Positions 1 to 56,854 of a stretch of 56,854 nucleotides of DNA are shown here, one piece after another. Under the pieces are notes generated by a model that did no database searches, was not told the DNA's origin, and saw only the letters and a program-made list of their open reading frames with translations. Source of the stretch: a virus. Its lineage: Duplodnaviria > Caudoviricetes. Each line of letters starts with the position of its first letter. The stretch's first letter is position 1. The stretch spans positions 1 through 56,854 of the IMG/VR virus record IMGVR_UViG_3300045284_000200; one strand, 5' to 3'. A program made the translations under genes and the position numbers.

Positions 1-127
1 AAGGCTTCGATGGCCCGCATCTGGGCTGCTGCTGCTGGACTGATTGCCTTGATGCCGGGGTCCATCGTGATTCGGCGCATGGCCATCCGGTTGAAGTTGC
101 GTCCGGCGACGACGAACGGTGAGAACC
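1..127. repeat. Terminal direct repeat, copy 1 (circular assembly overlap)
   Basis: 1-127 is identical to 56728-56854; 127 nt is a common assembler k-mer length, and the gene across the join stays in frame. Confidence 0.95.
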
Positions 128-3100
128 CGGCATCCTTGAAGAACCGCTGGAACTGGCCCATGAGCCTGCCGTTGTACTGACCCATCTGGTTAACCCACTC
201 ACGGCGCTCCGCTGGCGTATCATCAACCCATCCACGGCGAACTAGATTCTTGTACATGTCATCACGCACAAGGCGCATAGCTTTGTCCACGAACGAAATG
301 ACGTTGTGATTGAAGTTGGCAATAGACGCCAACCTGCCTTCTTTTGCCACGCCCTTGGCCCGCATAGCCCCGATGTCAGCCAGTTCGGCAATCTGCCGCT
401 GCACGTCAGGCGTCTTGGCCAGAACCTTGATGGAACTGGCAACGACGCGACCGATGGCATCAGGAAGGTTCACCCCCGGAAGCTTGCGAGCCATGTCCAC
501 TAGGACATTTTTGCCGCCCTGAGAACCAGCAATTGATCCTAACCCGTTGGCAACATGCCATACGGCATCGGTGGGGCCGGCCAACTGGATGCGATTTAGC
601 AGGGTGGCCGCGTTAACGATGGCGCTGCGCTGAACCGGTCCATCCACGTCAAGTGCCTGACGCACCTCCCCGGCCAAGTCCGCCCGAACCCACAGGTTCT
701 TGACGTAGGTCCGCACCTTGTTTTCACCCGCCGGGACACCTTTACGCTCAATTGTGAACTTCACGGCTGGTTTACCGCCAATCTCCGGCGTCGGTTCGCC
801 CGGGTCGAGCATCTCGGCCAACCCGTCTTTGACCAGTTGGTCGTACATCTGACGCTTGGTTGACTCCTCGAAGTTCCCTTCGATCATCCGTTGCGCGACT
901 GTTCGGTAGTCCGTCTCGTACTTCTCAGCGGTGCCGGCGGCTGTCTTGGAGAAGCGCGATGGGCGCCGCAGCGGGTTCATCAGGTTGCCGCGCCCGCCGC
1001 CTGACAGCAGCGCCTCCTCCCCGCCTTCAAAGATAGCCTTCAGGTTCACAAACGCGCCTGTATTCAATCCTGGGCCCGCCAAAGTGCCTCCTGCCTCTTC
1101 ATGGGCGGCTTCAGCTGTGGGTTGAACGCTTGTCTTGTGCCGGTCGATGGCGGCTTGAATCTCAGGATCGGCCAGGGCGGCTTGGAACTCCGCTTCCGTC
1201 TGGAACGGTGAATCCTGTTTTCCGATCAGGCTGTTGACCTTTCGGGCTGCTTTCGTATCCCCCGCCTTAGTGAAGGCGTCCTTGATTCCACGGAGACGGT
1301 CCTCGACGAGCAGAGCGCCAAGCTTCTTGCCAAAAGACAAGTCCTTGTAGTGCGAACCCAAGACATCGGTGGCCATGCTCTCGGCGACCAGCGGGGCTGC
1401 AATCTTTGATGAAGCGTAGCGGACGAGCGCGTTGCCGGACTCCACACTGGCGGTGCTGGTCTTTGGGGCTGATTTACCGGCAAGTTGAGCGCCAACAACC
1501 TTCATGGCTGTAGGCGCCGCCTTCACGAAATCGACGGCGGCTTTAGCCACCGGTGCCAATGGAGCGAGAGGCACAGACCCAGCCTCTCCACCCTTCAATG
1601 CCCCGGGCTCGCGGACGGAGGCGGCGATGCCGCGAGGTGCAGGTGATGCAGGTGTAACGGCAGCAGGTTCTTCGAGATTGTGAGTGGGCGGTTCGACCTT
1701 CTCGTTGATCTTCTTGCTACGGTTGATGTCCTCCGCTTCCAGGATGAAGTTGTCGCCACCAGAAAACGCGCTGGCCTTTGCCTTGGCGTAAGCCGCCTGA
1801 GCCTTCGAGGTGGGTAAATCTACCCAACTGATGTTCGGTCCAAACGTGGATGCCTTCGTGATGTTAGACGTATAGAACGCGCCTCCGGTGCCACCGCCCT
1901 GAGGGCCACCTTCGCCGTGGAACAGTCGAACATGCCCGGCAGGCACTGGGGGCAGTTGCTTCAGAACCGGCATGTGTTCGGGTGCCACTGCGGTCTGGAG
2001 TGATGCAATCTTAGCGTCAATCTGTGGTCGCAACTCAGGCTTACTGACTCGCAACCGCGCCAGTGAAGGAAGATCGGATGGCAAAACAGACTCGGCAGAT
2101 TTTGCCGTGGACTGAAGCTGATTTGGCTTCTGTCCACTGGATGGCGGCTCAGGAGGCATACCACCATACTTGTTCTTGATGGCTTCGTTCTCTTTGAAAA
2201 GCGCACCACCCTCTGCGCTATCCAAGCCAAGCCCCTTACCTTTCAATCCAGCAAGTTCCGCCTGTATGTCCTGATACCTTGCGTAATCTTCTGGAGTCGC
2301 CCGATAAGTTGTTCCCAGTGGATCGCCTTGTGGATTTTTGAATCGGGAGTTTCCCTGTTTCACCACTTCAGGTTTCGTTGGTTCCGCCGCTGGTTTCTCG
2401 TCCAAGTGACCAAGCATTCCAGCAGCACTCAAGTCCTCGCTCGTGAGATGATCTGGTTTGGTGGGCTTCTTACCGGTTTGCTTCTCGAAGATGTCAGCGG
2501 CTTCTTTACGGCTGACAAACCGCTCCTTGCCAGTGGTCGGGTCTGTGGCCGTGAAGCCCTGACTCTCCGGCTTGAACAGGTCTTCGATGGGAGCATCTGG
2601 AGCAAGACTCTTGGATGCTTCACCGATGGCCAACGGATGAGCCTTACCTTTGAAGGTCTGTTCACCTATCCTAACCGCCGGAGTCAGCAATGTGCGGTCG
2701 GTTAGTGGAACTTCGGTTCCCCCCGCCGCTTTTTCTCCTCGTGCGCCTTGCGCGTCTCCGGGTGGTACTCCGCTTGGTGGAACTCCTCCACTACCTTTTT
2801 GGGTGGACAGTTGCTCATTGACCCCGGGTTGTTCCGGCAACCCTCGAAGAATTTCCGCTGCTTGTCGCTCTTGTATGGCATTTGGTTCTCCTGTTGTTGT
2901 TGGTTCTTTGGCCAACTCACGCAGCGTTTCGGGTAACGCGACTCGCGGTCCAGCCGCATGAGTTCCGGCCATTGTTGTGAATGCGCCAGTTGCCGCCAAC
3001 TCGGTGGCTGCCCTGGCAATTGCTTCCGGGTCTTTGTTCGCTACGGCTTCACCCAAGTTCCGCGCCATCTCCGGCACTTGCCTAGCCATGTCCGCCGCAA

Positions 3101-3668
3101 AAGCGCCAGACGTGAGGCGCGCAGCGGCCGGAACCGCAGCTATTCCAGCAGTTCCAGCCAGCAGTCCCAGATTCATCGGGGAGGTGAACGATTCGGCCGT
3201 CCGATAGGCGCCCTGTGTTAATCCAGAGGTAGCTTTGGCCAACGGACTGGGCGTCAACGGAGTCTCCATCAAAGCCCATCGATCTCTCTCGGAAAGGAAC
3301 GGCGCTACCATCGCCTCCATCCCAGCTTCAGTTTCCTCCGGGGTAAGTGCTAATTTGGAAAGTGGCACCAGTGCCTTGCTGGGGTCGAATGGGATGTTTG
3401 TCTGGATCTGCCCCTTATCTGTCACCTGCATCCCGTATGGGCTCATGACGGGGAGCTTGGTCGGAGGTGGCGTTGCGCCATATTCATCCTGCCAGAACTG
3501 CGGTACTGAAACGGCTGCCTGCGGCACGTAAGCATTAGCTCCCCAATCTTGGGATGGCGGGATGATTGGCCGCGGCGGAGGTGCAACAGCGATAGCCGTA
3601 TCAGGCGTGAAGTCGATACTGCTGTCCGGCGAATCCTCTTCGTCAGCGGTGAAATCTATCGTTGGCAT
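1..3668 (-). CDS. Giant internal virion/ejection (polyvalent-like) protein, 5' part; continues across the junction to 55752 (~1547 aa total)
   Basis: Hand translation from ATG 3668 (MPTIDFTADEEDSPDSSIDFTPD...) shows no stop down to base 1, in frame with 55752..56813; A/P/E/K-rich; last gene of the virion module, after two smaller ejection-type genes; absent from the ORF track because it runs off the edge. Confidence 0.8.
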   Translation of the reverse strand, partial: MPTIDFTADEEDSPDSSIDFTPDTAIAVAPPPRPIIPPSQDWGANAYVPQAAVSVPQFWQDEYGATPPPTKLPVMSPYGMQVTDKGQIQTNIPFDPSKALVPLSKLALTPEETEAGMEAMVAPFLSERDRWALMETPLTPSPLAKATSGLTQGAYRTAESFTSPMNLGLLAGTAGIAAVPAAARLTSGAFAADMARQVPEMARNLGEAVANKDPEAIARAATELAATGAFTTMAGTHAAGPRVALPETLRELAKEPTTTGEPNAIQERQAAEILRGLPEQPGVNEQLSTQKGSGGVPPSGVPPGDAQGARGEKAAGGTEVPLTDRTLLTPAVRIGEQTFKGKAHPLAIGEASKSLAPDAPIEDLFKPESQGFTATDPTTGKERFVSRKEAADIFEKQTGKKPTKPDHLTSEDLSAAGMLGHLDEKPAAEPTKPEVVKQGNSRFKNPQGDPLGTTYRATPEDYARYQDIQAELAGLKGKGLGLDSAEGGALFKENEAIKNKYGGMPPEPPSSGQKPNQLQSTAKSAESVLPSDLPSLARLRVSKPELRPQIDAKIASLQTAVAPEHMPVLKQLPPVPAGHVRLFHGEGGPQGGGTGGAFYTSNITKASTFGPNISWVDLPTSKAQAAYAKAKASAFSGGDNFILEAEDINRSKKINEKVEPPTHNLEEPAAVTPASPAPRGIAASVREPGALKGGEAGSVPLAPLAPVAKAAVDFVKAAPTAMKVVGAQLAGKSAPKTSTASVESGNALVRYASSKIAAPLVAESMATDVLGSHYKDLSFGKKLGALLVEDRLRGIKDAFTKAGDTKAARKVNSLIGKQDSPFQTEAEFQAALADPEIQAAIDRHKTSVQPTAEAAHEEAGGTLAGPGLNTGAFVNLKAIFEGGEEALLSGGGRGNLMNPLRRPSRFSKTAAGTAEKYETDYRTVAQRMIEGNFEESTKRQMYDQLVKDGLAEMLDPGEPTPEIGGKPAVKFTIERKGVPAGENKVRTYVKNLWVRADLAGEVRQALDVDGPVQRSAIVNAATLLNRIQLAGPTDAVWHVANGLGSIAGSQGGKNVLVDMARKLPGVNLPDAIGRVVASSIKVLAKTPDVQRQIAELADIGAMRAKGVAKEGRLASIANFNHNVISFVDKAMRLVRDDMYKNLVRRGWVDDTPAERREWVNQMGQYNGRLMGQFQRFFKDAGFSPFVVAGRNFNRMAMRRITMDPGIKAISPAAAAQMRAIEA
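2702..2881 (-). CDS. Small basic protein (59 aa, MPYKSDKQRKFF...) nested in an alternative frame of the giant gene
   Basis: AGGAG Shine-Dalgarno (2888-2892) 6 nt before the ATG at 2881; N-terminus resembles the MP(F/Y)KSxxQRxF pattern of small phage proteins. Confidence 0.55.
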   Translation of the reverse strand: MPYKSDKQRKFFEGCRNNPGSMSNCPPKKVVEEFHQAEYHPETRKAHEEKKRRGEPKFH

Positions 3669-3679
3669 CAGACGCGAGT

Positions 3680-4102
3680 TTAGTTGTCGGTGTGTCGTAA
3701 GGCGCGATATGGCTGTGATCCGCTGCGGAGCGTTCCTTTTGAAAGCCATTCATCGTTTTCCTTTTGACGTTGTGCGACAGCTTTAAGAGAACATAGGTGG
3801 CAGTCCCCTCTTCTTACACGAGCCAGCTTCAGCATGTCTTTGCTGAGTGTCTTCTCAAGGTCTTTGACTACTGGTTTATTGAGTGAGTATGCGTATCGAG
3901 CATATTCAAAGTCCGCGAGATGCTCTGTATAGCACCAAGGACAAATGTAGAATAACTTATCTTCCCGTTCGTAAATCACTTGTATCGGAAGGAAGTCCCA
4001 ATCCGATTCAGCAACAGGACACGCCTTTGCTTTAGACTTAAAAGGAATGAACTTTGCCGCTATAGCGAGGGCTAGCGTTTTGAGAAACGATCTAGTGTTC
4101 AT
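3680..4102 (-). CDS. Hypothetical protein with Tat-like N-terminus and CxxC...CxxC zinc-binding motifs
   Basis: MNTRSFLKTLALAIAAKF start; CPWC and CHLC; lower GC than its neighbours. Confidence 0.55.
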   Translation of the reverse strand: MNTRSFLKTLALAIAAKFIPFKSKAKACPVAESDWDFLPIQVIYEREDKLFYICPWCYTEHLADFEYARYAYSLNKPVVKDLEKTLSKDMLKLARVRRGDCHLCSLKAVAQRQKENDEWLSKGTLRSGSQPYRALRHTDN

Positions 4103-4295
4103 TTGAAGATGAATTAAATTTGGCATTAGCAAGCTCCGGGAACTCTTTTTCCAATTCCGGGAACAGTCCGCTAGCTATAAGTCCTATCACGTCTTCTCTG
4201 CGTGCTTCCCATTCTGTTCCCTCGCAGCCCACAAACCATAGGGTAACTGGCCACTGCCTCCGAACCTTACTCTGGATTCCTTTTCTTGCTGTCAT
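4092..4295 (-). CDS. Hypothetical protein (67 aa)
   Basis: Start overlaps the upstream stop (TAATG coupling). Confidence 0.5.
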   Translation of the reverse strand: MTARKGIQSKVRRQWPVTLWFVGCEGTEWEARREDVIGLIASGLFPELEKEFPELANAKFNSSSNEH

Positions 4296-5338
4296 TAAAC
4301 CTGCGCTTCCCCTTCTGAATCGATCTCTTCGTATCCAGCTTCCAAAGCCGCGTCGAGTTGGTCTTCAGGAATCATCCCAGTTTTGCCATCAGGCGATGTT
4401 ACCCGAACCATATTGGCTGCTGCTTCTTCATCTGGTTCGACTGATGCCCCACCTTCGTCTGGGGCAACTGACGACGAACCACCTGGAGGAATGGACTGCG
4501 CCGCTGGGTTTGGAACCACGGCTGGTGCTCTTGGCGGCAATGGACCGGGAATCTGCTGGGTTCCGCGTCGCTCAATGTCCTTTTCGATACGATCACGTAA
4601 AGCAGTGAGCTTTTTCTGGAGCGCCGCTTCTTCTTCTCCTGTTGCCGTATCCAGTTGTTTCGAGTAGATGCCGGCGAGAATTTGGTCTTGCCTCATTCTT
4701 CCTTCTGGAGACATCTCGGTACGTGGCAACGGAACAATAGAACCTCCGGCCCCTCTTCGTACTTTCACTCCAGTAGGATTGCCTTGTTCGTCCATCAATT
4801 CGTGGGCAACAAAATCTTGTGGACCAGTGACTCCTTTCGGAACGGCAAAAGTCATTCGCTCTGGATGTTTCGCAAAGAGCATCGGCGCGTTCTCAGTGAT
4901 GAGCTTTTGCAACGATTCACCTCTCTGTAATCCTTCTTGCACAGCTTTTGCACCTTGCATCTGTTGCGCTGCCGTCTTGGCTTCCGCCTCGGCTGCCTGT
5001 TGTTTCATCCGCAAGGTCTGCTGGAATTGATCGGCTCTCTGAGCCTGATATTCCCGTCGCAACTGCATCTGGCCCGCGGCTTGAGCAAGTTCCCGATCAT
5101 TCGTCTGCTTGAGAACTTGATCACGACGCAGAGCGGCACGTTCTTGCGCGGCTTGTTTCTCCGAATCTTGTGCGGCCAGATTAGCCGCATTCTCACGACG
5201 GAACTGGAGTTCATCAGCCTGCGCTTGAGCCGCCCGTTCGCTGGCCGCTGCCTGATTGCGCTGCGCGTTGGCCGCAAGCCTGATTCGTGCGGGAGCAATC
5301 GGGTCGAGGTTTAACCAAGGAGGAATTTGGACAGCCAT
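4295..5338 (-). CDS. Internal virion/ejection protein
   Basis: Q/A-rich coiled coil; C-terminal VRVTSPDGKTGMIPEDQLDAALEAGY typical of podophage ejection proteins; likely start MAVQIPPW. Confidence 0.65.
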   Translation of the reverse strand: MAVQIPPWLNLDPIAPARIRLAANAQRNQAAASERAAQAQADELQFRRENAANLAAQDSEKQAAQERAALRRDQVLKQTNDRELAQAAGQMQLRREYQAQRADQFQQTLRMKQQAAEAEAKTAAQQMQGAKAVQEGLQRGESLQKLITENAPMLFAKHPERMTFAVPKGVTGPQDFVAHELMDEQGNPTGVKVRRGAGGSIVPLPRTEMSPEGRMRQDQILAGIYSKQLDTATGEEEAALQKKLTALRDRIEKDIERRGTQQIPGPLPPRAPAVVPNPAAQSIPPGGSSSVAPDEGGASVEPDEEAAANMVRVTSPDGKTGMIPEDQLDAALEAGYEEIDSEGEAQV

Positions 5339-5342
5339 AAAA

Positions 5343-6302
5343 TCAAGAATAGAGTGGATCGTAATAGTCAGCAGGACCGTAATCAGTGGACAACCAATCA
5401 CCGCTCAAATCCGCCCCGCCTGGACCGCCGAACAGATCCGTGTTGAGCCCCTCCCAAGGCATTCCACCGCCGTAATCAAGACTGCCACCGAAATCTTGGT
5501 TCCCAGAGGATTGGTCATTGAAAAGCCAACCGAAAGGATCTTGATCCCCTCCTCCCGCGCTCAAAGCGTTCGGGAAGCTTCCCCAAGGAGAGTACCCACC
5601 GCCTTGCGATGTATTCTGGTTGGTTCCATATCCTATGGTCGGTGCGCCATAGCCACGCATGATGCTATCGACCGGTCGCGCCGCGCCTCCCCCACCCAAA
5701 TCGTACCTCAGTCCTGGTGTGCCGCGACCACCACCTCCGCTATCAGCCGCACCCATCGCCCGACGATAAGCCTCTTCTGGCACGGGCGCCGAAGCGTACA
5801 GATCCGCCCGTTCTTGAGCGGCCAACTGGTCATTGATGATCGCGCTTGGATCGAATGGCCTGACCGTTGGTATCTCCGATTGGACAGTTCCAAGATCCTT
5901 GAGCGCCTGATTCTCGACTCCGTAACGGGTCAGCCCAAGATCGCGGAGCAGCTTTGTATTCTCCGCCTGGCTTCCGCTCATGCCACCGTACACCGCGTTC
6001 TCGGCGGAGCTTTGTTGAAGTTCTGGCAGCAAATCCGAGATGTCTCCCTTGGCCCGCCGGCCGGTGTTGCCAAGGAGCGTTCCGAGCGTTGAGAAATACT
6101 GATCAGGGTACTGCGACCTTAACGCCGAAGATTGAGATCCAGTAATCGAATTGATGATGCCGCTCAAGCCGCCCAGATTGCTGGTGATGGCGTCAATCGG
6201 AGAGGTGACTCCCGGGATGCCACCACTGGCAGGATTGTAACTCCGCGGTTGCGCACCAGTCACACCACTTGCACCACCACTTATGATTTGTCCGCCTGGC
6301 AT
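5343..6302 (-). CDS. Gly/Ser-rich DNA ejection (pilot-like) protein
   Basis: Low-complexity G/S-rich 319 aa, located between the adaptor gene and the larger ejection proteins. Confidence 0.6.
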   Translation of the reverse strand: MPGGQIISGGASGVTGAQPRSYNPASGGIPGVTSPIDAITSNLGGLSGIINSITGSQSSALRSQYPDQYFSTLGTLLGNTGRRAKGDISDLLPELQQSSAENAVYGGMSGSQAENTKLLRDLGLTRYGVENQALKDLGTVQSEIPTVRPFDPSAIINDQLAAQERADLYASAPVPEEAYRRAMGAADSGGGGRGTPGLRYDLGGGGAARPVDSIMRGYGAPTIGYGTNQNTSQGGGYSPWGSFPNALSAGGGDQDPFGWLFNDQSSGNQDFGGSLDYGGGMPWEGLNTDLFGGPGGADLSGDWLSTDYGPADYYDPLYS

Positions 6303-6314
6303 AAAATTATTGGG

Positions 6315-6938
6315 TTAGAGTGGAAGGAACTTCTGATCATGACGATCCCAGTCTTTCAATGATTTGTTCGACTTGCTGTGGTTGCACGTAGGACACGAAG
6401 CGCAGAGATTTTCGACTGCGTGGTTTCCAGACTTTGAAAGAGCGACGATGTGATCGACGTGAACGTCCATCCCTCGAATGACCTTCCCGCAGTAGTAACA
6501 GGGAATGGTCTTTTTGCTGCGAACGAACTTGTAGAACTCATTTACACCACGAGTATCAATGCTTGCGCCAAGTATTCTTGCCCGCCTCAGCTTGGCACGT
6601 AGCACGTTTTCAGGTTGGTGGGCGTCGCTGTATTTCTTCTTGGCTCTTCGGAGAGATTCGGGATTGTTTCGCTTCTGGTTTTCAACGCTCCTTTTAACCA
6701 CTTCTGGATGAGCGGCGTGATAAGCTTTATTTGCAGCAAGTATCCGCTCTTTGTTGGCTTCGTAGTGAGCCTTTCTTGTGGCCGCGTATCTCTCTTTATT
6801 GGCGTGATAACGGGACTTGTTTTCAGATCCACGACGGTCTTTGTGATCTAACCAGAACTGCTTTTGGTATTCGCGAAGTTTCTCCCTGTGTTTTTCGCGA
6901 TAAGCTTTCTGGTAGGCTCGTTTTTCCTCTGTGATCAT
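6315..6938 (-). CDS. HNH endonuclease
   Basis: CYYCG...HVDHIVALSKSGNHAVENLCASCPTCNHSK; basic helical N-terminal repeats. Confidence 0.92.
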   Translation of the reverse strand: MITEEKRAYQKAYREKHREKLREYQKQFWLDHKDRRGSENKSRYHANKERYAATRKAHYEANKERILAANKAYHAAHPEVVKRSVENQKRNNPESLRRAKKKYSDAHQPENVLRAKLRRARILGASIDTRGVNEFYKFVRSKKTIPCYYCGKVIRGMDVHVDHIVALSKSGNHAVENLCASCPTCNHSKSNKSLKDWDRHDQKFLPL

Positions 6939-7969
6939 CTCAATGAGCCTATACGTTGATGGGACAATTTAGCAGTACCAAATGGGGCAAAATTTATGGC
7001 TGGTCGTTCTTTTCCTAGCCAAAACGTAAGTTCTCCATTCAAAAGGTTTATAGCCTTTCGGTGATGCAGTGCTGATTGACCAGCGGAGGTGGAGTCATCC
7101 ATTTCCGAGAAGCGGACGGATTGGCACTCTTCTTTCAATGCCGTGATGTTAGAGATCAGGAGATAGTCACTGTCAACCTGTACCGGAATGAGCGCGAGTT
7201 TCGCCATCGCCGTTACCTGAGTCGTTGCAGGTGCGGGCAGGACCGATCCACAGCAGTTTGGTGGGAGCCCATTTAGGAAATAGCGTCGATACCCTGCCAC
7301 CTCTTCACTGGGTTCCATCGTGAGAATCAGTCGAGATACGCCCGTCACTGTGTCCACCTCGAACACCCGCACCTGACCGACAGTAAAGTCCTTCTGCAAT
7401 CCGGTTAGCGTTATGATGTCGAACGGAGTGTCCACGAACGGTTGTGCGAATGGAATGTAGATGCCCGTAACCTCATCAACTCCATCAAGGCTGTAAATCG
7501 TCGTGCCGTTCTGGTCGGTGCCCTGCACGAGAACCCGGCGCCCGACGTCGGCCGCGTCGGTGATGTAGAACCGAAGCCGTTTGTTCGGCGGAACTATGTC
7601 GGAGAAGGTTGGGAACATGCCGCGATCGTACGTCTCCAGCCCGTTGCATTCGCAACCCGGCTGCAACCCAACTCCAGCCTCAAGGAACTCGTAGAACTCG
7701 TTCTGGATTCGCACCGGGTTACGGCAGATGTCCATGTTGATTAGCCGGGCGATGCTCCTAGGCAGGGTGATGTAGGGATTGGTTGTTCCCGTTACGGTGA
7801 ACGCCGTTCTGGCCCAAGAACCCCACCAGCCAGTCTCGCCACCCGCAAAGACCAGCCGTTGCTGTGCTTCATTGATGATCTCGATAAGCCTGTTGTTGTC
7901 CGATGCGCAAGATCCGAGCGTCTCTGGGATTCGAGATTGGCGAACGTCTTTGAGTCTAAGAATTCTCAT
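6935..7969 (-). CDS. Head-tail adaptor / tail tubular protein A-like
   Basis: N-terminal LIEIINEAQQRL helix; position between fibre and ejection genes; likely start MRILRLKDV. Confidence 0.55.
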   Translation of the reverse strand: MRILRLKDVRQSRIPETLGSCASDNNRLIEIINEAQQRLVFAGGETGWWGSWARTAFTVTGTTNPYITLPRSIARLINMDICRNPVRIQNEFYEFLEAGVGLQPGCECNGLETYDRGMFPTFSDIVPPNKRLRFYITDAADVGRRVLVQGTDQNGTTIYSLDGVDEVTGIYIPFAQPFVDTPFDIITLTGLQKDFTVGQVRVFEVDTVTGVSRLILTMEPSEEVAGYRRYFLNGLPPNCCGSVLPAPATTQVTAMAKLALIPVQVDSDYLLISNITALKEECQSVRFSEMDDSTSAGQSALHHRKAINLLNGELTFWLGKERPAINFAPFGTAKLSHQRIGSLR

Positions 7970-7970
7970 A

Positions 7971-9509
7971 TCAGGTGTCGGACATGGTAATGGCCATTTC
8001 AAATTCAATGTGTGGACCGTTCACGATGCCACCAGCGATGCCCAGTATGTCTTCCAACGGGCCGGGACCAAATATATCCGCCCTGATTTCAATGAGCGAT
8101 CCGGGGGCTTCGACAAGACTTACACTGAATTCATTTACACCAAGAGCCAGCGTAGGTGAAAAAGGAAACGCGCCGTTGCCATGATGCTTGGAAAATATCT
8201 GGGCTCCATCCTGGAAGAGAGCGATTCCGAAGAAAATATCTCCAGTCCCCAATGGCACATTTTGTTGGATGACGTTAAGACGCAACTTGAAAGTGCACGC
8301 ATGAGCATCTGCAACTATAAAGCCGTGAGCATGGACGAAAGCTTCTCCGGCGTTTGTGGCAGTCGGATTGTCCTCCAAATCAAATTGCAGAAGACCGCCA
8401 ACCGCTGATCCTCCAGCACCGGCTGTCCCGGTGGAATTGGTTGAGAAGATGTCCCAAGTGATGGCATCCCAGTCCACTCCGCAGCCTACTTCGGCTACTT
8501 CCAAAGTGAATGTCTTCTGACAACTAACTGCGCTCCCGTTGCAAGTCGCATCGACCTTGATCGCGAATGTCGATGTACCGAGATCAGTTGGAATCCCTGT
8601 CAAAGATCCGTTTTCAGCAAGAAGTATCCCCGGTGGTAAGTTTCCACTTACCAAGGTCCAGATTTCAGACGAAACAGTCGCGGGTTGCTGCACAAGCGGC
8701 TGGGCATAAACAAGCCCTATCGTTGCATTCGGAAGCGCGGTTCCAGTGACGATCTCCATGACACAAATCGTCAAGACCTTTGTCTGCGACCGGCCAAGAG
8801 AATCCGTCACCTCTACGATAAAAGTGTAGGAACCTCCGACTGTCGGAGTTCCAGTGATGGTGGCGTCGAAAAAGTCAAAGGTAAGACCTGGCGGTAGATT
8901 ACCATCAATCGACCAGATCAAATCCTCTCCATTTGAGGTGCCCAACTGGTAAAAATAGCTGATTCCAACACACACAGATGGGGGCGTTTCTCCTGAGATG
9001 CAAAACAGGTTCCGTTGCGCCAGTCTACAGGCAAGACTCCTGGCCTTCTCATCTGCAAGCGCCTGACTCAACTCGACGATGGTTCCAGCAGCCACAGTTT
9101 CCGTAAATGGTGATCCATCCGCGCAAAGCACATCACAGGTCTGAACCGAGTTCCTAAATCTTCGGATGGGGAATCTTGGATTCTGCGGAGGTAAATTATG
9201 GCCACCTCCTTTCCCTCCAGTTTCGTTCGGTCCCGGTGGAACTGGAGGCGCGGGTGGCTTTCCTCCATCATAGGTGCATTCTTCGGCACTACGAAGGGCA
9301 CAAAGATTCGCATCTTGTTGAGACACCTCTGAGAAACAGATCGATTTGCAACTCAATTGAAAATAAGTGACTCCCAACGGCGGGTTCCATTTGAAATCCC
9401 TGAAGCCGATGAACACGTCCACATCTGGCGCTTCCGCCGTGATGTTACGAATCGGATCATCGTTACACGGAAGACACTGCTTTAAGGCAAGGGAACACGG
9501 AGCGATCAT
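7971..9509 (-). CDS. Cys-rich tail fibre/adhesin with DUF5977-like segment and two putative Ig (He_PIG) repeats
   Basis: GNLPPGLTF...ITGTPTVGGSYTFIVEVTDS and GNLPPGILL...LTGIPT; TVAAGT...SQALADEKA; about 17 Cys. Confidence 0.7.
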   Translation of the reverse strand: MIAPCSLALKQCLPCNDDPIRNITAEAPDVDVFIGFRDFKWNPPLGVTYFQLSCKSICFSEVSQQDANLCALRSAEECTYDGGKPPAPPVPPGPNETGGKGGGHNLPPQNPRFPIRRFRNSVQTCDVLCADGSPFTETVAAGTIVELSQALADEKARSLACRLAQRNLFCISGETPPSVCVGISYFYQLGTSNGEDLIWSIDGNLPPGLTFDFFDATITGTPTVGGSYTFIVEVTDSLGRSQTKVLTICVMEIVTGTALPNATIGLVYAQPLVQQPATVSSEIWTLVSGNLPPGILLAENGSLTGIPTDLGTSTFAIKVDATCNGSAVSCQKTFTLEVAEVGCGVDWDAITWDIFSTNSTGTAGAGGSAVGGLLQFDLEDNPTATNAGEAFVHAHGFIVADAHACTFKLRLNVIQQNVPLGTGDIFFGIALFQDGAQIFSKHHGNGAFPFSPTLALGVNEFSVSLVEAPGSLIEIRADIFGPGPLEDILGIAGGIVNGPHIEFEMAITMSDT

Positions 9510-9513
9510 GAGA

Positions 9514-10635
9514 TTAGTTTACTTTTCTGACCATAAGAGCCGCGATTTCAAAAGCATTGGCAAACGGCCATGAAATGTTAACCGAGTCGAACACGCCGGT
9601 AGATTCATCAAAGGCGTAGTTGTGAGTTGTCGCCGTAGCCCCAATCGCTGCCGACAGTGAAGTGTGATTTCCGACTGTCCCAGCCACCTCTCCAATCGCC
9701 AATTGAAACAGGCAGGATTTGGATTTTGAAAATTCCACATTTGCAGTCACATCAAACATGAAACCCTGGGTGTAAGTAATCGAAGACGCCGCATTGGCAT
9801 ACAGTGGGCGTGAAATATCCAGGAAGAAATAGGTAAGGTATCCTTCCTGCGCAACTATCGTTCGAGTTGAACCACCAGCGCCGCTCGTGTGATCGGTGGT
9901 TGTGACTCCTCGGCGGGTGGAAAACCTAGGCGTGGTTACTTGGTTGTAATACGCAGCCTTGGTGCCTGAGTTGAAGTTGAAATTATTCGGAGTGGTGTTT
10001 TCCCATCGAATCCCGAGGAAATTGGCTGTCGATACGCTCGCAACCATATTCGTCGTCCCTGAGCATATTCCAACGTAGCCATCACCAGTAAAAGTTGAGG
10101 TATTGTTAATCCGAATGGCACAGAAAATTTGAACTCGATTCCATTTATTACCCCATCCGAACTTGCGTCCCATTTGACCGTTAAGAATTGCCAGGGCTTG
10201 AAATGTCCGGCCATCCACCGCAGTTCTTGAAACGATGGCGCTCCCGCCGTCGGCTACACCAGGGGATGCATCCCACCCTGAACCTTTGTCCAGCGACGTA
10301 ATTGTGCCCAGGGCGTACTCCTCAAATGTATCAATCGCAAAACCATCCTTTGAATCGAACCCAGCAGCAATCGGACCCGTGGCGCCAGTCGCGCCGGTGG
10401 CACCGGTTGGTCCTGTTGGACCGGTGGCTCCGGTCGCACCAGTGGCGCCCGTAGCGCCCGTGGCCCCATTAGCTCCAGTCGGTCCCTGCGGACCTTGTGG
10501 CCCAGTGCCAATTGCGCTCTGGAGTTGTTCAACGGTTACTTTGCTGGTTGAACTGCTGCCATCCGAAACATCTATCGGAAGGACACTGGTTAATGGCGGC
10601 GGCGATGCTAAGGGAGGAAGGTCTGTGATTTTCAT
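9514..10635 (-). CDS. Collagen-like tail fibre protein
   Basis: MKITDLP fibre-attachment type N-terminus, 15 G-X-Y triplets, beta-rich C-terminal head. Confidence 0.8.
10369..10503 (-). repeat. Collagen (G-X-Y)15 repeat, 11 triplets with Thr at Y
   Basis: [45 protein letters not shown]. Confidence 0.95.
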
Positions 10636-12878
10636 TTGATTACAGTGATGCACTCACCAGACTGGGCAGTGATTGGTTCTCCTGCTTGAGTGGTTAGACA
10701 GTCAATAGCAATTGGCGGTGGAGGTGAAGGCGGGAGTGCGGGTGGAGTAATAAAAAACGTGTCGTCCGCACATACCAGATTCTGGTACGGCGCCTTTACT
10801 TTAGGTTGGGCGTAAATGCGTAGCCCTCGCAACCTGCACCAGCCCTTAATCGTCAGACGAATCTGGAATTGATAACCCTCCGTTGTAGGACGTGCGTTGT
10901 TCGCCTCACATTGGTTCGGAGGCGTAGGCATGGACACCGTGGCCTTGAACCCTTCGCAGTACGGTTGCACCGGATAATTGGGACACGTCACTGCTTCCGG
11001 GTCTTCACGGCAATCTTTGGCGACGCATTGTTTCCAGGCGTGCCAAGTTATCCAGCATGGGGAAGAATCCGGCCGGTATTCGACCATGAACTGGACGGTG
11101 CCAAGCATCTTGTCGAACCACAGTTCAAGACCGTCGAGCTTCTTGAGCAGGAATGGATCTCGCCACGTATAGGCGGGAGTCTCCAGATACCAAGTCACCC
11201 GGTCGCCGTCGTTTTCCACCTGACTATCCCATCGGTCCTGCGTCGTCATCTCCCAGATGTCGATGTTGCCCGTCAACTGACTGACCACGATGTCAAAGGC
11301 CCGCTGCAATCCGCCGAAGTCCGCTTCGAGCACTTGAAGATGAGACAGTCCCTCGTACATCCCTTCCCATGCAGGCGGAAGTTTGTTGTCGATGTTACCC
11401 AGAACATCGAAATCAAACGGGATGATCCCTTGATGTGCTACACCCTTGTCGGTCTGAAACGGACCCACTGATTGCCACAGTCGATTGTCGAAGTTGATAC
11501 CACTGACAAAGCGCATGAGCGCACGATTGTTGAACTTGAGCACTCTCTCTTCTGGGCTGCTTAGGGGAACGTTTCCCCACTGACCAAAGTTGCGAACGGA
11601 AATGGCAAGCGAGCGAATGCCATCCATCGCTTGATAGAACAAATCTCCATTGACATTGATAACACATCGATCACCAACCGAACCAAAGTTGATTTGAGCA
11701 ATTCGCTGCAACGGTTCGCTGAGTGCTGACCAGTCGGCACGTTTTGGTGGTACGGTGGTAGCGTAAATGTTCTTTCGAGTGAACACGTAGAGTTCACCTT
11801 CACCTAAAGCCGAGTTCAGGTTTGCACTATGCTTGAGCGCACGAATGTTCCCGGCATTGGTCGGGACAATGAAGGCATCTCCGGCCAGTGACACAGGGTT
11901 CTCAGTCGTCTTGAGGATGGAGTCCCGGTATCCGTATGGAGCAGTGCCTGAAGCTCTGCTTCCCACGATGTCACCAGCGCAGTACTGTCGCCCGAAGGCA
12001 TACCACAACCGCCCCATGTAGTAATCCATCGGACCGGCTGGCGGAAGTTCAGAGGCAATGCCGGTAGTTGTCACCGCAGATGATTTGGCCGTGATGTTCC
12101 AATTGTAGGTATGAGCCAAGAAAAATGGCTGGCTTGGACTTGGTCCAGGCACGAAAACACTAACCGTAGCCGGAGGAGTTCCAGGATAGGCGTCGGTAAG
12201 ATGCGCTGTCGCAGATCCGCCAATGGCTGGAATGGTAAACGGATCTCTTAGAGTGAAATTGCCTTGGCTGGAAGTGAACAGACTGCCCGCAGGTATCACC
12301 GTTCCAACCCGTGTGTCATCGATGTTTTGAATGGTGATGGTGAACGCATCACTTGTGGTAGTCTGACCTGCTCCAATGCCAAGAAACCCTCGGCTTCTAC
12401 GGAGCGTTACGCCATCCCAGAAGAGTGGAAGCGTAATCAGATCGCCTGATTGGATGACGAGAAACTCTTCTCCCTGCGCCATGAATCCTAGCGGCTCATT
12501 GGGTGGCATGGTCATACCAAACGCCGCCGACAAATCCACAACCGAGTTGTCCGTGTCCACGCGCACTTGGTAAATGCGTCCGCCGATCATGACTATGAGA
12601 TACGGATTGACGAAGGGCGGCTCATACATGTACGCCGCCTGAAAGATTCCCGGCCAGGGTATATTTTGCACCAGTGGCTTCCAACCGGTGCGCTGTGTGA
12701 CTCCTCCACCACGCACCGTTCCGTTAGTCAGCCACGCCAGTTGATTGAATTTCAGTCCTGTCTCGAACCCCGGAGAGTTCATCGTTGGAATACGGCCGCT
12801 ATCAATTCCGCCCTCGAACGATACCTGACCATCTACTATCCTTACGCCACCATTTCCGTTAGCCATGTCGCCTCCCAT
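10632..12878 (-). CDS. Tail nozzle / tail tubular protein B-like (beta-propeller type)
   Basis: 748 aa; FEGGIDS...[14 protein letters not shown]-terminus, [21 protein letters not shown] motifs typical of P22 gp10/T7 gp12-like proteins. Confidence 0.7.
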
Positions 12879-13683
12879 TTTTTGGACCGGGAGTTATTTT
12901 TTTACGGGCCGAAATCTCGTCTGTCTCTTTCGCTTCGGTAGCGTATCTCCAGACATAACCACAGGCTTGGCGTCGCTTGCCATTGCACACTGCATGGATG
13001 TTCGTTCTTCCCCCTAACTCTGCCTCCGCGTGCTGGACTTGTTCAAATCGACGAATGAATTTCCAATCAAGTGAGAACTGTAACACGGCACGTTGCTGCC
13101 AAGGATTGGCCCTGTGACCCTTTGAAATGTTCTCACGCCACTCCTCCGAATATTTCTTTCCAGTCATTCTACGGCTCTGCTCCGCTTTCTGTTCTGGAGT
13201 GAACTTCCTTCCTTTGTGTCCATTCATCGCTTTGCGATGAGTGGCCAAACGCTCTGGCGACATCTTTCTACCCTTTAGAGATGCCGATACACGAGCCACG
13301 TATTCAGGATCACGCTTGATGCCTTGGCACGAATTAGATTTCGGAGATATGTTGTATCCTGTATCCGGTCGATAGCTCTGATAAAAATCCATCCAAAATT
13401 GTTCCCGTGCGATTAGCGTGGATTTGTCAGCGCCGGGAAGCTCTTCGATCACCTGCACCTCGAACGCATCTGGATTCTTGTCGAACGCCCTTTGGAAATA
13501 GCGACTGTGATGCACTCTCTTTGCAAGATCGTGGCGATGCTCAGTCCATCTGTGATTCAGGCGAACTCCACTGCCAACGTAGATTTTAAGATTGTCCCGG
13601 TTGATGATGGCATAGATTCCAGACCCCTTAACTGAATACGGAGACGTAAGGTGTCGATGGAACGTGTAGGTGCCATTTGCCAT
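12859..13683 (-). CDS. GIY-YIG homing endonuclease with NUMOD3- and NUMOD1-like DNA-binding modules
   Basis: SGIYAIIN...IYVGSG..L..RW..H; REQFWMD; GYNI; C-terminal VLQFSLD...IHAVCNGKRRQACGYVWRY. Confidence 0.92.
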   Translation of the reverse strand: MANGTYTFHRHLTSPYSVKGSGIYAIINRDNLKIYVGSGVRLNHRWTEHRHDLAKRVHHSRYFQRAFDKNPDAFEVQVIEELPGADKSTLIAREQFWMDFYQSYRPDTGYNISPKSNSCQGIKRDPEYVARVSASLKGRKMSPERLATHRKAMNGHKGRKFTPEQKAEQSRRMTGKKYSEEWRENISKGHRANPWQQRAVLQFSLDWKFIRRFEQVQHAEAELGGRTNIHAVCNGKRRQACGYVWRYATEAKETDEISARKKITPGPKNGRRHG

Positions 13684-55751: not shown

Positions 55752-56854
55752 TCACTGCCCTACATCCGGCACGAAATCAATCGCCGGCGCCGTCTTCGGA
55801 GCAGCAGTGCCCCTCTTGCGCCATGCCTTCAGGAACTCCTGATATGTCGCCTTCCGTTCCGCCAACGCCTTCTGATACTCCGCCCGTTGCTCCGCGTTGA
55901 GGCTGTTCTTGAATGCCGTCTCCAATTTGTGCGACTCGTGGAACAGCGGCTTGGTCCGCGAGTTGACCCCTTCTCCAACGAACGGACGCATCCGGTGAAG
56001 GATGTCCCTGTTCTTCTGGCCTTCGGCTTTCAAATCGGCAATGGCCGATATGGCTCCAGCCTCATCCCGCTTCGCGAGCGCATCGTCGAGCGCCTTGTAC
56101 TTGCTCACCGGGAACGTCGCCGTCTGCATCTGCTCGTAATCCGCCTTCACCTTCGGGTCTGGATTGTTCTCCATCCACGACTGATGCAAGACACCCATCT
56201 TGTTGATCGCCGTGAACGGTTTCACCGTTTTCAATCCAGCCGCTCCGCCAAGTGACATCCCGATTTCTTTGAGCCCGCTCGTTCCCTTTTCCTTGCTCTT
56301 GAGCAAAGCCTCGGCAGCGGGGTTCAACTGCTTCAGAGCCGCCACGATGTTCTTGCCGTAGTCCTTCGGATTCTCCGACTCCTTGTAGCCGGTCGGAGAG
56401 TAGCCGGTGTAGCCGACGGATGCCGCATTGACCGCCGGCCCTGCCCACGGATGGATCACTCCACCCATGACATCGCGGATCACGTTCTGCGTGATTCGTC
56501 CACGGGTTTCCCCGCGCTGCGCTCCCTCAACGATGGCCTGGATGCCTGAGATGCGAAGCCCTCGGCGATGCCCCGTCCACTGTGCCGGGTCAATGACGAT
56601 GTGCTTCCCTTGGTCATCCTTGCCGGTATCGATTTGACCCATCTTCGTGCCCGGGCGCCCGCCGGGGGTGCCGGTAAGCAGGTAGTTGGCAAGTGCCGGG
56701 ATGGCAAATACGGTGGCGATCGTACCAAAGGCTTCGATGGCCCGCATCTGGGCTGCTGCTGCTGGACTGATTGCCTTGATGCCGGGGTCCATCGTGATTC
56801 GGCGCATGGCCATCCGGTTGAAGTTGCGTCCGGCGACGACGAACGGTGAGAACC
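55752..56854 (-). CDS. Giant internal virion/ejection protein, 3' part
   Basis: The track's 353-aa ORF is the C-terminal continuation of the frame starting at 3668; ends ...APAIDFVPDVGQ. Confidence 0.8.
   Translation of the reverse strand, partial: FSPFVVAGRNFNRMAMRRITMDPGIKAISPAAAAQMRAIEAFGTIATVFAIPALANYLLTGTPGGRPGTKMGQIDTGKDDQGKHIVIDPAQWTGHRRGLRISGIQAIVEGAQRGETRGRITQNVIRDVMGGVIHPWAGPAVNAASVGYTGYSPTGYKESENPKDYGKNIVAALKQLNPAAEALLKSKEKGTSGLKEIGMSLGGAAGLKTVKPFTAINKMGVLHQSWMENNPDPKVKADYEQMQTATFPVSKYKALDDALAKRDEAGAISAIADLKAEGQKNRDILHRMRPFVGEGVNSRTKPLFHESHKLETAFKNSLNAEQRAEYQKALAERKATYQEFLKAWRKRGTAAPKTAPAIDFVPDVGQ
56728..56854. repeat. Terminal direct repeat, copy 2
   Basis: Exact copy of 1-127 (aaggcttcgatgg...ggtgagaacc). 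Confidence 0.95.

Follow-up and report, generated by a model that had tools for sequence, protein, structure and literature searches.

A 180-nt stretch on the minus strand of a complete phage record (56,854 nucleotides as analysed; this whole stretch of DNA is referred to below as the window) can be regarded with good confidence as true dual-coding DNA, in which both readings are kept and a small gene would be translated from an internal start within a giant open reading frame. The entire layout of the small gene is carried by the minus strand: a Shine-Dalgarno (SD)-like AGGAG is followed by a 6-nt spacer (AACCAA), an ATG, and a 59-codon frame that translates as MPYKSDKQRKFFEGC... and ends at a TAA (2704-2702). 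In the long ORF (3749..3), the same bases translate as ...GEPNAIQERQAAE.... The small frame is +1 relative to the giant ORF and lies wholly nested within it on the same strand, an architecture of the embedded type. The CA-rich surroundings of the AGGAG are mostly unpaired in the predicted fold; no significant RNA structure was found round the small-gene start (fold z-score -0.42), and no internal sigma-70-like promoter was found in 2400-4300. A small gene with its own ribosome-binding site in a shifted frame had been put forward in the original prediction, and its presence is confirmed here, on the minus strand. The comparisons described below support this ORF as a genuine gene that carries start signals of its own. 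Its product, P0001, was modelled by AlphaFold2 with a mean pLDDT of 81.3 as a protein of three helices with a basic C-terminal tail, and two invariant cysteines, Cys15 and Cys25, flank the first loop of the predicted protein. As read from the translation, the N-terminus is charged and non-hydrophobic, with no hydrophobic signal and no lipobox before the first Cys; once Met is removed, the N-terminal residue would probably be Pro. The coordinates of all features are collected in Table 1.

Table 1. Positions in the window of the small gene, its start signals, and the parts of the giant ORF.
Feature	Position	Strand	Basis or remark
SD-like AGGAG of the small gene	2888..2892	-	sequence; 6 nt before ATG
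ATG start codon of the small gene	2879..2881	-	position kept across 33 loci
Small gene P0001, 59 codons + TAA	2702..2881	-	translation, homologues, small-frame purifying selection, AlphaFold2, hhalign
Giant ORF, first 1249 codons (P0002), runs off window start	1..3749	-	no Pfam, PHROG or PDB relative
Giant ORF, last 325 codons after wrap	55752..56727	-	frame followed round ends; ORF 55752..56852
Direct terminal repeat, 127-bp copy of window 1-127, inside giant ORF	56728..56854	.	
N-terminal domain of giant protein, from second Met, residues 28-289	2883..3668	-	ordinary host-frame selection
Likely dual-coding stretch, G/P/E/Q-rich linker, about residues 290-350 (NAIQERQAAE...TEVPL)	2702..2882	-	

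The record represents a complete 56.7-kb phage, and the giant ORF wraps its ends. When the 127-bp repeat was removed and the frame was followed round to 55752, the ORF was found to encode a total of 1574 aa. Searches of the giant protein against Pfam and PHROGs yielded nothing significant (best Phage_Mu_Gp27, E 0.034, below the cut-off), and a sequence search of the PDB returned 0 matches at E <= 1. With no relative in any of these databases, the earlier description of this ORF as a giant ejection gene is not established. When 19 further ORFs of the window were annotated with PHROGs, all that emerged were HNH and homing endonucleases, one collagen-like tail fibre, one PAPS-reductase-like protein and a single unknown family; no head and tail genes were placed by this annotation of those 19 ORFs. 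Upstream genes on the same strand were tail-fibre-like or unknown, and none was a lysis gene. The host stretch that shares its bases with the small gene had been described as a low-complexity linker, and it is indeed G/P/E/Q/A-rich and poorly conserved: across homologues its residues are not conserved, while stop codons are excluded from it.

Conservation of the small ORF was assessed in 33 loci, corresponding to 24 distinct versions (including that of the window), of which 19 are nested in long ORFs and 5 are free-standing. Both the frame and the place of the start were kept in all 33 fetched loci matching the small protein (L004-L036); the start codon was ATG in 30, GTG in 2, and an ATG one codon earlier in 1. 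An SD-like motif was present in 15 of the 19 distinct nested loci and absent from the other 4, compared with a background of 0.20-0.24 (binomial P 6e-7 to 7e-8). Conservation of the SD, the ATG and the open alternative frame in homologous loci, proposed originally as a check on the small gene, is thus observed.

Selection was then compared between the two frames. In the overlap, the mean pairwise difference at small-frame codon positions 1, 2 and 3 was 0.31, 0.20 and 0.43, respectively, and amino acid identity was highest, at 0.63, in the small frame, compared with 0.40 for the host frame and 0.44 for the unused one. The host-frame value does not exceed that of the unused frame: as proposed, the NAIQE-like stretch of the giant protein is an out-of-frame shadow of the small gene. 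When codon pairs with a single difference were considered, the synonymous share in the overlap was 64% for the small frame, compared with 13% for the host frame and 21% for the unused one, although these pairwise counts are not independent events because the loci are related. Over the upstream 110 codons (6 loci), the host frame had a synonymous share of 69%, and the small frame one of 21%; over the downstream 70 codons (3 sequences), the shares were 94% and 7%, respectively. The selection signature switches frame at both borders of the small ORF, and host-frame selection resumes straight after the small-gene stop. Judged from these substitution patterns, it is the residues of the small protein that are under selection, and the giant frame is merely kept stop-free in the overlap.

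The small protein had also been expected to belong to a widespread phage family beginning MP(F/Y)KSxxQR, and a search of the peptide against phage proteins bore this out, with MP(Y/F/S)KSxxQ as the start that marks the family. Seven called proteins of 58-65 aa matched it at E 2e-28 to 9e-7, and an exhaustive search returned 31 cluster representatives at E <= 1e-3, 30 of them 40-73 aa long and one of 126 aa; nearly all of the 31 align from residue 1, that is, from the Met-Pro start at the extreme N-terminus. One scan of IMG/VR gave 286 confirmed relatives, of which the best 80 were examined, and 149 cultured-phage records match the family, including phiKZ-like and 121Q-like jumbo phages. Cultured-phage homologues that are annotated as genes include that of Pseudomonas phage fnug, which carries the note PHIKZ165.1, gp074 of Serratia phage Moabite, a 46-aa gene of a Rhizobium phage, and a 52-aa gene of a Stenotrophomonas phage. 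Among the distinct versions of the wider family, 62 of 68 were not flagged as nested, and the free-standing homologues occupy varied contexts. When the neighbours of free-standing copies were examined by PHROG annotation and blastp, they were unrelated to giant proteins with one exception, a 131-aa stretch common to a Rhizobium phage giant protein and the L092 host.

P0001 itself matched 0 Pfam or PHROG models at E <= 1. However, hhalign comparison of 23 proteins of its Cys-type clade with 17 Ala-type proteins gave a probability of 97% (E 9.4e-11, 46 columns), and the Ala-type proteins match phrog_16759 at 1e-10 to 1e-21. Two members of the Cys-type clade also match phrog_16759 directly, L036 (8e-6) and L029 (0.006). 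Since there is no direct PHROG match, membership of P0001 rests on profile comparison and intermediates; on this basis, P0001 is assigned to the MPxKSxKQ (MPSKSKKQ/phrog_16759) superfamily of small phage proteins as a Cys-type member, with the Met-Pro N-terminus, the basic tail and, for free-standing members, the length of 40-75 aa that characterise the family. The distant Ala-type branch shows the same architecture: host ORFs of 1178-1596 codons enclose L079, L092 and L108, for L049 and L075 the overlap is with the 3' end of the preceding gene, and the probability of an open frame was 0.02-0.07 for these five. Moreover, the matches of family members include residues 1-45 of two PHROGs labelled 'virion structural protein', namely phrog_22033 (845 positions) and phrog_25121 (263 positions); 121Q gp51 (263 aa) carries the same annotation.

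Several other searches gave no relatives. Searching P0001 by tblastn against INPHARED phages returned E = 8 noise only, and a PDB profile search with the small protein returned E 1.1 noise only. Foldseek comparison of P0001 gave 0 matches in the PDB and none significant in BFVD, where the best (E 0.14) was an uncharacterised 53-aa phage protein; two 'DUF6321' proteins were also listed in BFVD at a non-significant E 0.47-1.7. A profile scan of cellular genome contigs produced 43 pattern matches, 0 of which were confirmed, and no sign of a Cys-type gene. Longer fused forms of P0001 were not found in a word-index-limited search, which constitutes weak evidence. In the published literature searched, no description of the small family or of its nesting was found, nor were papers on DUF3008 or PHIKZ165.1.

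Against this background, it was considered whether the small frame might be a chance 'shadow' ORF, open only by virtue of the G/P/E/Q/A-rich codons of the host linker, with a peptide that is never made. Besides the small frame, the window's part of the giant gene contains 17 alternative frames of 45 or more codons on the same strand. Moreover, when the host residues were held fixed and synonymous codons were redrawn, the small frame remained open in 40% of recodings for the window, and the geometric mean over the 19 loci was 56%. Because the small frame is so often open anyway given the host residues, its openness alone proves little, and we regard the comparison with relatives, rather than the open frame alone, as decisive for the reality of the small gene. 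That comparison makes a chance ORF extremely improbable: the purifying-selection signature is found in the small frame, is absent from the host frame and switches at the borders, the ATG and SD are conserved whereas many aligned matches to the other alternative frames have stops in homologues, and free-standing homologues exist, some of them as annotated genes in cultured phages. A programmed frameshift, by which the small frame would form part of a fusion through a -1 slip to the giant body or a +1 slip from the N-terminal domain, also has observations in its favour. The domain forms the N-terminus of long 'virion structural' proteins elsewhere (compare the in-frame fusions of phrog_22033), near-slippery N-AAA-AAG runs occur at small-frame codons 27 and 49 in the window, and, given that the small frame lies one base forward of the host frame, a -1 slip from it would lead into the latter. 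However, no slippery heptamer keeps a conserved position, such heptamers are missing altogether from 6 of the 19 nested loci, and the most frequent one (codon 27-28, 8 of 19 loci) follows from a conserved Lys-Lys. The stop position of the small protein is conserved together with a C-terminal K(Y/F)H motif, and in 11 of the 19 nested loci an in-frame stop located 3-14 codons before the ATG, with no start between, leaves no room for +1 entry. In addition, a slip close to the end of the small ORF would need no open host frame over the rest of it, yet that frame is kept open along its full length. A frameshift is accordingly judged to be quite improbable.

Another explanation would be that the N-terminal domain, the small protein and the body are encoded by separate genes, and that the long frame just happens to contain no stop where it crosses the small gene. 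The small gene is free-standing in 5 of the 24 distinct loci, and L004 has a separate 378-aa N-domain gene, still overlapping the small ORF, and a 1367-aa body gene five genes downstream. Yet when the small protein was held fixed and synonymous codons were redrawn, the probability of an open host frame was only 0.00-0.04 per locus, whereas the frame is in fact open in all 19 nested loci and in none of the 5 free-standing ones. The same was seen when avoidance of T at the third position before AA, AG or GA codons was measured: T3 occurred at 0 of 376 such at-risk junctions in nested loci, compared with 60 of 688 other junctions in nested loci and 10 of 90 at-risk junctions in free loci (P = 1.4e-15). 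Host-frame selection also resumes directly past the small stop, and because there is no stop between the domains, ribosomes starting upstream must read through. Accidental openness is thus very improbable, and these comparisons show that selection maintains both frames of the overlap and that the SD and the start are conserved. As to the role of the nested gene, the original suggestion was an antidote or chaperone that would be inherited along with the ejected effector domains of the giant protein. Nesting does guarantee co-transcription and co-inheritance, and the arrangement persists while the flanking domains swap: in L018 and L031, the overlap is the sole part of the giant protein matching that of the window, and in L024, L028 and L034, the one matching region hardly reaches beyond it. 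On the other hand, the giant protein is without a family or structure match, nothing indicates ejection or toxicity, and most members of the wider small-protein family stand alone in unrelated contexts, the fnug and Moabite genes among them. L002 and L003 carry the N-terminal domain without the small ORF. Moreover, G001, the complete genome of L001, encodes a giant-protein body 85% identical to that of the window (residues 687-1249) but has no small gene at E <= 0.01, and giant proteins of this kind can therefore occur without the small gene. The suggested role as antidote or chaperone thus finds no support and is considered unlikely.

Under the dual-coding reading, ribosomes from the giant-ORF start would read through the stretch in the host frame, and their product there would be a flexible G/P/E/Q-rich linker between the N-terminal domain (about 28-290) and a 1200-residue body. 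On the same late mRNA, free 30S subunits would bind the internal AGGAG in the unstructured CA-rich stretch, and initiation at ATG 2881 in the +1 frame would yield the separate 59-residue protein. This protein may be virion- or assembly-associated and made with the giant protein, a weak suggestion prompted solely by the domain's occurrence as the N-terminus of proteins annotated 'virion structural' in some jumbo phages. Those annotations are database labels of long fused jumbo-phage forms. A complex prediction for the giant N-terminal domain (residues 95-262) with the small protein gave no answer (score 0.00) and speaks neither for nor against binding.

The small gene had been portrayed as overprinted inside the giant gene, a polarity that is probably backwards, because the small-protein family is far wider and mostly free-standing. 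It is probably the linker of the giant gene that is the overprint, and the small gene that is older; this polarity is based on family breadth and on a 60-column midpoint-rooted tree that is poorly resolved, with 16 of 32 inner branches open. A free-standing small gene would then have come first, the giant gene or N-domain gene would later have extended its reading frame through it, and the -1 frame of the small gene would thereby have become a linker. More tentatively, and with considerable doubt, a mostly soil-type phage lineage might have built giant multi-domain proteins by fusing neighbour genes through a still-functional small gene, whose -1 frame served as the linker. The arrangement would have been gained, lost and moved between non-homologous flanks, and would persist by fixing co-production of the small protein with the giant protein as its virion or assembly partner.

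For fully nested same-strand genes in large dsDNA phages, selection in two frames has rarely been shown, and such genes are dropped by standard gene callers. The present pair is comparatively well supported, and its architecture was found in both branches of the small-protein family. Its polarity is also unusual, in that the constrained gene is the short, widespread one and the long gene appears to borrow the out-of-frame reading as a linker; a linker borrowed in this way would mean a route of gene fusion that spares the gene in between. In addition, a large uncharacterised family of small phage proteins is now tied to a Cys-bearing branch, and avoidance of T3 before AA/AG/GA codons provides a simple synonymous-site screen that can be used for hidden nested phage genes.

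Within the superfamily, phrog_16759/MPSKSKKQ proteins such as the fnug PHIKZ165.1 gene product, Moabite gp074 and the 46-aa protein of Rhizobium phage RHph_TM3_14A share with P0001 the N-terminal motif, the length and the predicted helical layout, while the likeness of Escherichia phage 121Q gp51 is limited to its N-terminal 40-45 residues. At the positions of the two invariant cysteines of the window's clade, the common phrog_16759 branch has Ala/Gly, and most phrog_16759-type members are free-standing whereas P0001 is nested. A language-model search also ranked at position 18 (score 0.91) a cluster with 37% DUF3008 (PF11450) members, which we take to have a similar Lys/Ser/Gln-rich N-terminal start. 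Identity with DUF3008 was rejected: P0001 and 32 family members gave no HMM match at E <= 1 (gathering score 24 bits), 16 Ala-type proteins gave none either, and a six-frame search of the whole record with PF11450 found nothing at E <= 10.

Among known nested genes, the closest parallel is the two-component spanin pair of phage lambda, in which Rz1 is nested in the +1 frame of Rz. Here, too, a larger gene fully encloses a small one that has start signals of its own, on the same strand and in the +1 frame, and the family of the small gene is also overlapped or separated in other phages. Unlike Rz1, which is an outer-membrane lipoprotein, P0001 has neither a hydrophobic signal nor a lipobox, and there are no lysis genes upstream on the same strand; the sole spanin PHROG match was obtained with family member L039 (E 0.16), and a spanin identity was rejected. 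Unlike Rz, a 150-aa membrane protein, the host here is a 1574-aa ORF without a detectable family, and, in a further difference from Rz/Rz1, only the small frame of the present overlap is constrained at the residue level. The Rz/Rz1 genes are described as an embedded architecture in PMC5295617 and PMC6139136, and overprinted genes of small viruses (phiX174-type overlaps) are treated in a review (PMC8227390). As in phiX174-type overlaps, one stretch is read in two frames under asymmetric constraint, but unlike in small viruses, the overlap resides in a 57-kb dsDNA phage genome with no obvious shortage of space. In classic overprinting, the overprint is a younger, narrowly distributed gene on an older one; in the present locus, by contrast, the nested short gene is widespread and residue-constrained, and it is the linker of the long gene that looks overprinted.

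All elements of the original prediction, namely an AGGAG motif at a suitable distance from an ATG and a shifted 59-aa frame inside the giant ORF, were found in the window, on the minus strand (see the table). The host frame lies one base earlier over the same DNA, where the window's part of the giant protein (P0002) reads ...TTGEPNAIQERQAAEILRGLPEQPG.... The record is complete (56,854 bases) and carries a 127-bp direct terminal repeat; once this repeat is removed, the giant ORF continues across the record ends to 55752 and encodes 1574 aa. Because the repeat lies within that ORF, the more likely reading is that the assembly was circular or circularly permuted and its ends overlap, rather than that the genome physically ends there. 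Upstream of the small ATG, the small frame remains open for 53 codons with three in-frame alternative starts; given that stops break this extension in most relatives, it looks accidental.

Coordinates of features in the window and in two related loci
Feature	Position	Strand	Remarks
AGGAG motif	2892-2888	minus	
Spacer AACCAA		minus	6 nt, between AGGAG and ATG
ATG of small ORF	2881-2879	minus	
Small protein P0001		minus	59 codons, begins MPYKSDKQRKFFEGC
Stop TAA of small ORF	2704-2702	minus	
Long ORF P0002	3749..3	minus	contains whole small ORF
Small frame with upstream extension	2702-3019	minus	5120-5299 in reverse-strand view
Direct repeat	1-127 and 56728-56854		inside the 1574-aa ORF
HNH endonuclease gene	6315-6938	minus	phrog_2118, E 1e-17
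Collagen-like tail-fibre repeat region, 379-aa protein	9514-10653	minus	phrog_5073, E 2e-12
Homing-endonuclease-type gene	12859-13683	minus	phrog_314, E 8e-28
Phosphoadenosine phosphosulfate reductase family, 261-aa protein	28221-29006	minus	phrog_424, E 4e-28
L004, N-domain gene	3004-4140		
L004, body gene	6895-10998		
L029, giant protein	1650-6041	plus	

An open frame of this length is not by itself beyond chance. G+C is 0.50-0.60, and the window's part of the giant gene contains 17 alternative same-strand frames of at least 45 codons. Random synonymous recoding, with host residues fixed and codons drawn according to their usage in the host ORF, left the small frame open with a probability of 40% in the window and 15-94% over 19 loci (geometric mean 0.56). 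It is comparison with relatives that carries the case for a small gene. P0001 matched no Pfam or PHROG model and no INPHARED phage. A word-indexed protein search returned 7 called proteins of 58-65 aa (E 2e-28 to 9e-7), and an exhaustive HMMER search returned 31 cluster representatives at E <= 1e-3, 30 of them 40-73 aa long and one 126 aa, with the alignment beginning at residue 1 in nearly all. Conservation among these representatives was complete at Cys15, Cys25 and Pro26 and almost complete at Met1, Pro2 and Gln8. Scans with a small-protein alignment (A1) yielded 7 viral and 25 metagenome loci and none in cellular genomes; the small ORF was also present in L004, one of four loci fetched with the giant protein. 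The frame was intact from the same start in 33/33 loci; the start codon is ATG in 30 and GTG in 2, and in the remaining one an ATG lies one codon further upstream. Removal of identical copies left 24 distinct versions, including that of the window.

The small gene was nested in 19 of these 24 versions, where a long ORF one base back spans it entirely. Host ORFs ranged from 382 to >1700 codons, many being cut at the locus end and two being short because of the contig end. The host frame of L012, a short contig, stops 43 codons after the small stop. L004, a complete 56.9-kb relative, has the window's giant gene split into an N-domain gene (the N-domain being giant-protein residues ~28-290) and a body gene (the C-terminal ~1200 residues). 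There the small ORF sits near the 3' end of the N-domain gene, a 378-aa host whose stop lies 44 codons past that of the small ORF. The body is encoded on its own, as 1367 aa, five genes further downstream, and residues 352-456 of the window's giant protein match inside it at 82% identity. In the hosts of L018 and L031, the match to the window's giant protein was limited to the stretch overlapping the small ORF, and in those of L024, L028 and L034 the single match scarcely exceeded it. The remaining 5 versions were free-standing: behind a 972-aa gene after a 94-nt gap (L008, L009 and L021), abutting the upstream gene (L033), or packed between 165-aa and 329-aa genes (L036).

Selection on the two frames was compared across the overlap in the 19 nested versions. 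Amino-acid identity was 0.63 in the small frame, 0.40 in the host frame and 0.44 in the unused frame, and among codon pairs with a single difference the synonymous share was 64%, 13% and 21%, respectively. Mean pairwise nucleotide difference at small-frame positions 1/2/3 was 0.31/0.20/0.43, as is typical when the small frame is coding; for the host frame the same figures put the lowest variability at the third position, where coding sequence normally has the highest. In both flanks the signature was the opposite. Over 110 codons upstream (6 loci), the synonymous share was 69% for the host frame and 21% for the small frame, with the host third position the most variable (0.58); over 70 codons downstream (window, L015 and L004), it was 94% and 7%. 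The signature of residue selection thus switches to the small frame where the nested ORF begins and returns to the host frame exactly where it ends. These pairwise counts come from related sequences and so do not count as independent; even so, the contrast is large, and the controls were taken from the same loci.

The reverse test, in which small-protein residues were fixed and synonymous codons redrawn, gave a probability of 0-4% per locus that the host frame would be open; it was in fact open in 19/19 nested and 0/5 free loci. The low probability arises because a T-ending codon before one starting with AA, AG or GA creates a host-frame stop, and Lys, Glu, Asn and Asp are abundant in the small protein. 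T occurred at 0/376 of these at-risk junctions in nested loci versus 10/90 in free-standing copies, and at 60/688 other junctions of the same nested ORFs (P = 1.4e-15 for 0/376 at the 8.7% background). The maintained host frame and the avoidance of T argue that read-through of the small ORF is selected and that the giant ORF is one gene in phages with nested copies. Taken together, the comparative evidence supports well a real nested gene.

The start signals were likewise conserved. An SD-like tetramer lay 4-11 nt before the start in 15/19 nested loci, against a background rate of 0.20 for randomly chosen host positions and 0.24 for other ATGs out of frame (binomial probability 7e-8 to 6e-7), and in 1/5 free copies. 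In 11/19 nested loci an in-frame stop precedes the ATG by 3-14 codons with no start between, which places the beginning of the protein at Met-Pro-Tyr-Lys-Ser. The leader is CA-rich, with no significant RNA structure, and no sigma-70-like promoter was found within the giant gene. Synthesis of the small protein as a frameshift fusion is unlikely, since no slippery heptamer was conserved in place.

A wider scan of IMG/VR with a distant small-protein representative (P0023) confirmed 286 relatives; the best 80, together with two loci from another scan, gave 68 distinct versions. The majority were Ala-type (MPSKSKKQ..., with Ala/Gly replacing both Cys). Alignments of the window's Cys-type clade (A5, 23 rows) and of the Ala-type (A6, 17 rows) matched over 46 columns in hhalign (97% probability, E 9.4e-11), and membership of the family is thus supported at profile level. 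Ala-type sequences matched phrog_16759, annotated as of unknown function (E 1e-10 to 1e-21), as did Cys-type L036 and L029 (E 8e-6 and 0.006). The Ala-type sequences further matched positions 1-45 of two families labelled 'virion structural protein', phrog_22033 (845 positions) and phrog_25121 (263 positions). DUF3008, proposed by a language-model search (rank 18, score 0.91), failed every HMM test. Most versions (62/68) were not flagged as nested; many were short genes, and some formed the N-terminus of 100-300-aa Gly/Lys-rich proteins (L056, L067, L077, L083, L099, L109 and others). These longer proteins have long, basic, Gly/Lys/Met-rich low-complexity tails, recurring GGKVKK-like units and a conserved C-terminal motif that includes Cys; six searched against Pfam matched no family. 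Six of 68 were flagged as nested, one of which (L073), an edge case at a contig end, was left out of the count. L079, L092 and L108 lie deep in ORFs of 1178-1596 codons, in the one-base-back arrangement and preceded by AGGAG-like motifs; the overlap in L049 and L075 is with the 3' end of an upstream gene. For these five the probability of an open host frame was 0.02-0.07, and T occurred at 0/87 at-risk junctions. C-terminal homology links the hosts of L079 and L108 to those of L032, L011, L029 and L005, so the nested architecture occurs in both branches, among giant genes that form a single related, mosaic set.

Ala-type homologues occurred in 149 cultured-phage records. They include a 58-aa gene in phiKZ-like phages (noted as PHIKZ165.1 in Pseudomonas phage fnug), gp074 (52 aa) of Serratia phage Moabite, and the N-terminus of gp51 of Escherichia phage 121Q, a 263-aa 'virion structural protein' adjoining gp50 of the same annotation. 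In Rhizobium phage RHph_TM3_14A (60.9 kb) the homologue is a 46-aa gene that lies two genes beyond one of 2307 aa, and Stenotrophomonas phage BUCT555 has a 52-aa gene between the capsid genes and a 687-aa gene that follows the large terminase. A literature search, with supplementary tables outside its scope, returned no account of the family or of its nesting.

The original prediction had the small gene overprinted inside the giant one; the direction was probably the reverse. On a midpoint-rooted, poorly resolved tree (60 columns, 16/32 inner branches open), 23 Cys-type rows, all 19 nested versions among them, formed a clade (support 96/84) that excludes free-standing L036 and L038, and free-standing L008/L009/L021 fell within this clade, beside nested L010 (81/91). 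At least 2 changes between nested and free states were forced, and the most parsimonious number was 5. Given this tree, the wide occurrence of free-standing members and the constraint on residues in one frame only, the most probable history is one in which the upstream neighbour of a free small gene began to read through it, the linker being the overprint. Nor is the small gene essential to every such giant protein: G001, a relative with a complete record of 58.4 kb, encodes a giant-protein body with 85% identity over residues 687-1249 but no small gene at E <= 0.01, and L002 and L003 (records 80-89% complete) have a diverged N-domain without it.

The giant gene is the final gene of a minus-strand block, with the collagen-like tail-fibre gene and several unknowns upstream. 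Of the 19 ORFs scanned, which comprised neighbours and other large ORFs, none but the tail-fibre gene could be recognised as structural; the HNH and homing-endonuclease-type genes also lie among the tail-side genes. Since the giant protein has no Pfam, PHROG or PDB relative, its 'ejection' label is a guess. Residues 573-833 of the L029 giant protein matched RNA polymerase sigma-factor PHROGs (phrog_1740, E 1.8e-8; phrog_351, E 1.8e-6), which hints that some related giant proteins carry a transcription-related module.

AlphaFold2 on a small-protein alignment (A2) predicted helices at 6-17, 28-38 and 41-53 (mean pLDDT 81.3, pTM 0.54), with Cys15 at the end of helix 1 and Cys25 just before helix 2; Foldseek gave no match in the PDB and nothing significant among predicted viral structures. 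The antidote or chaperone role once proposed is without support. Our best guess, a tentative one, is that the protein may be small, basic and helical, associated with the virion or its assembly, and produced along with the giant protein. The pair has the same kind of genetic architecture as Rz/Rz1, but differs from it in cargo and in its unusual asymmetry.
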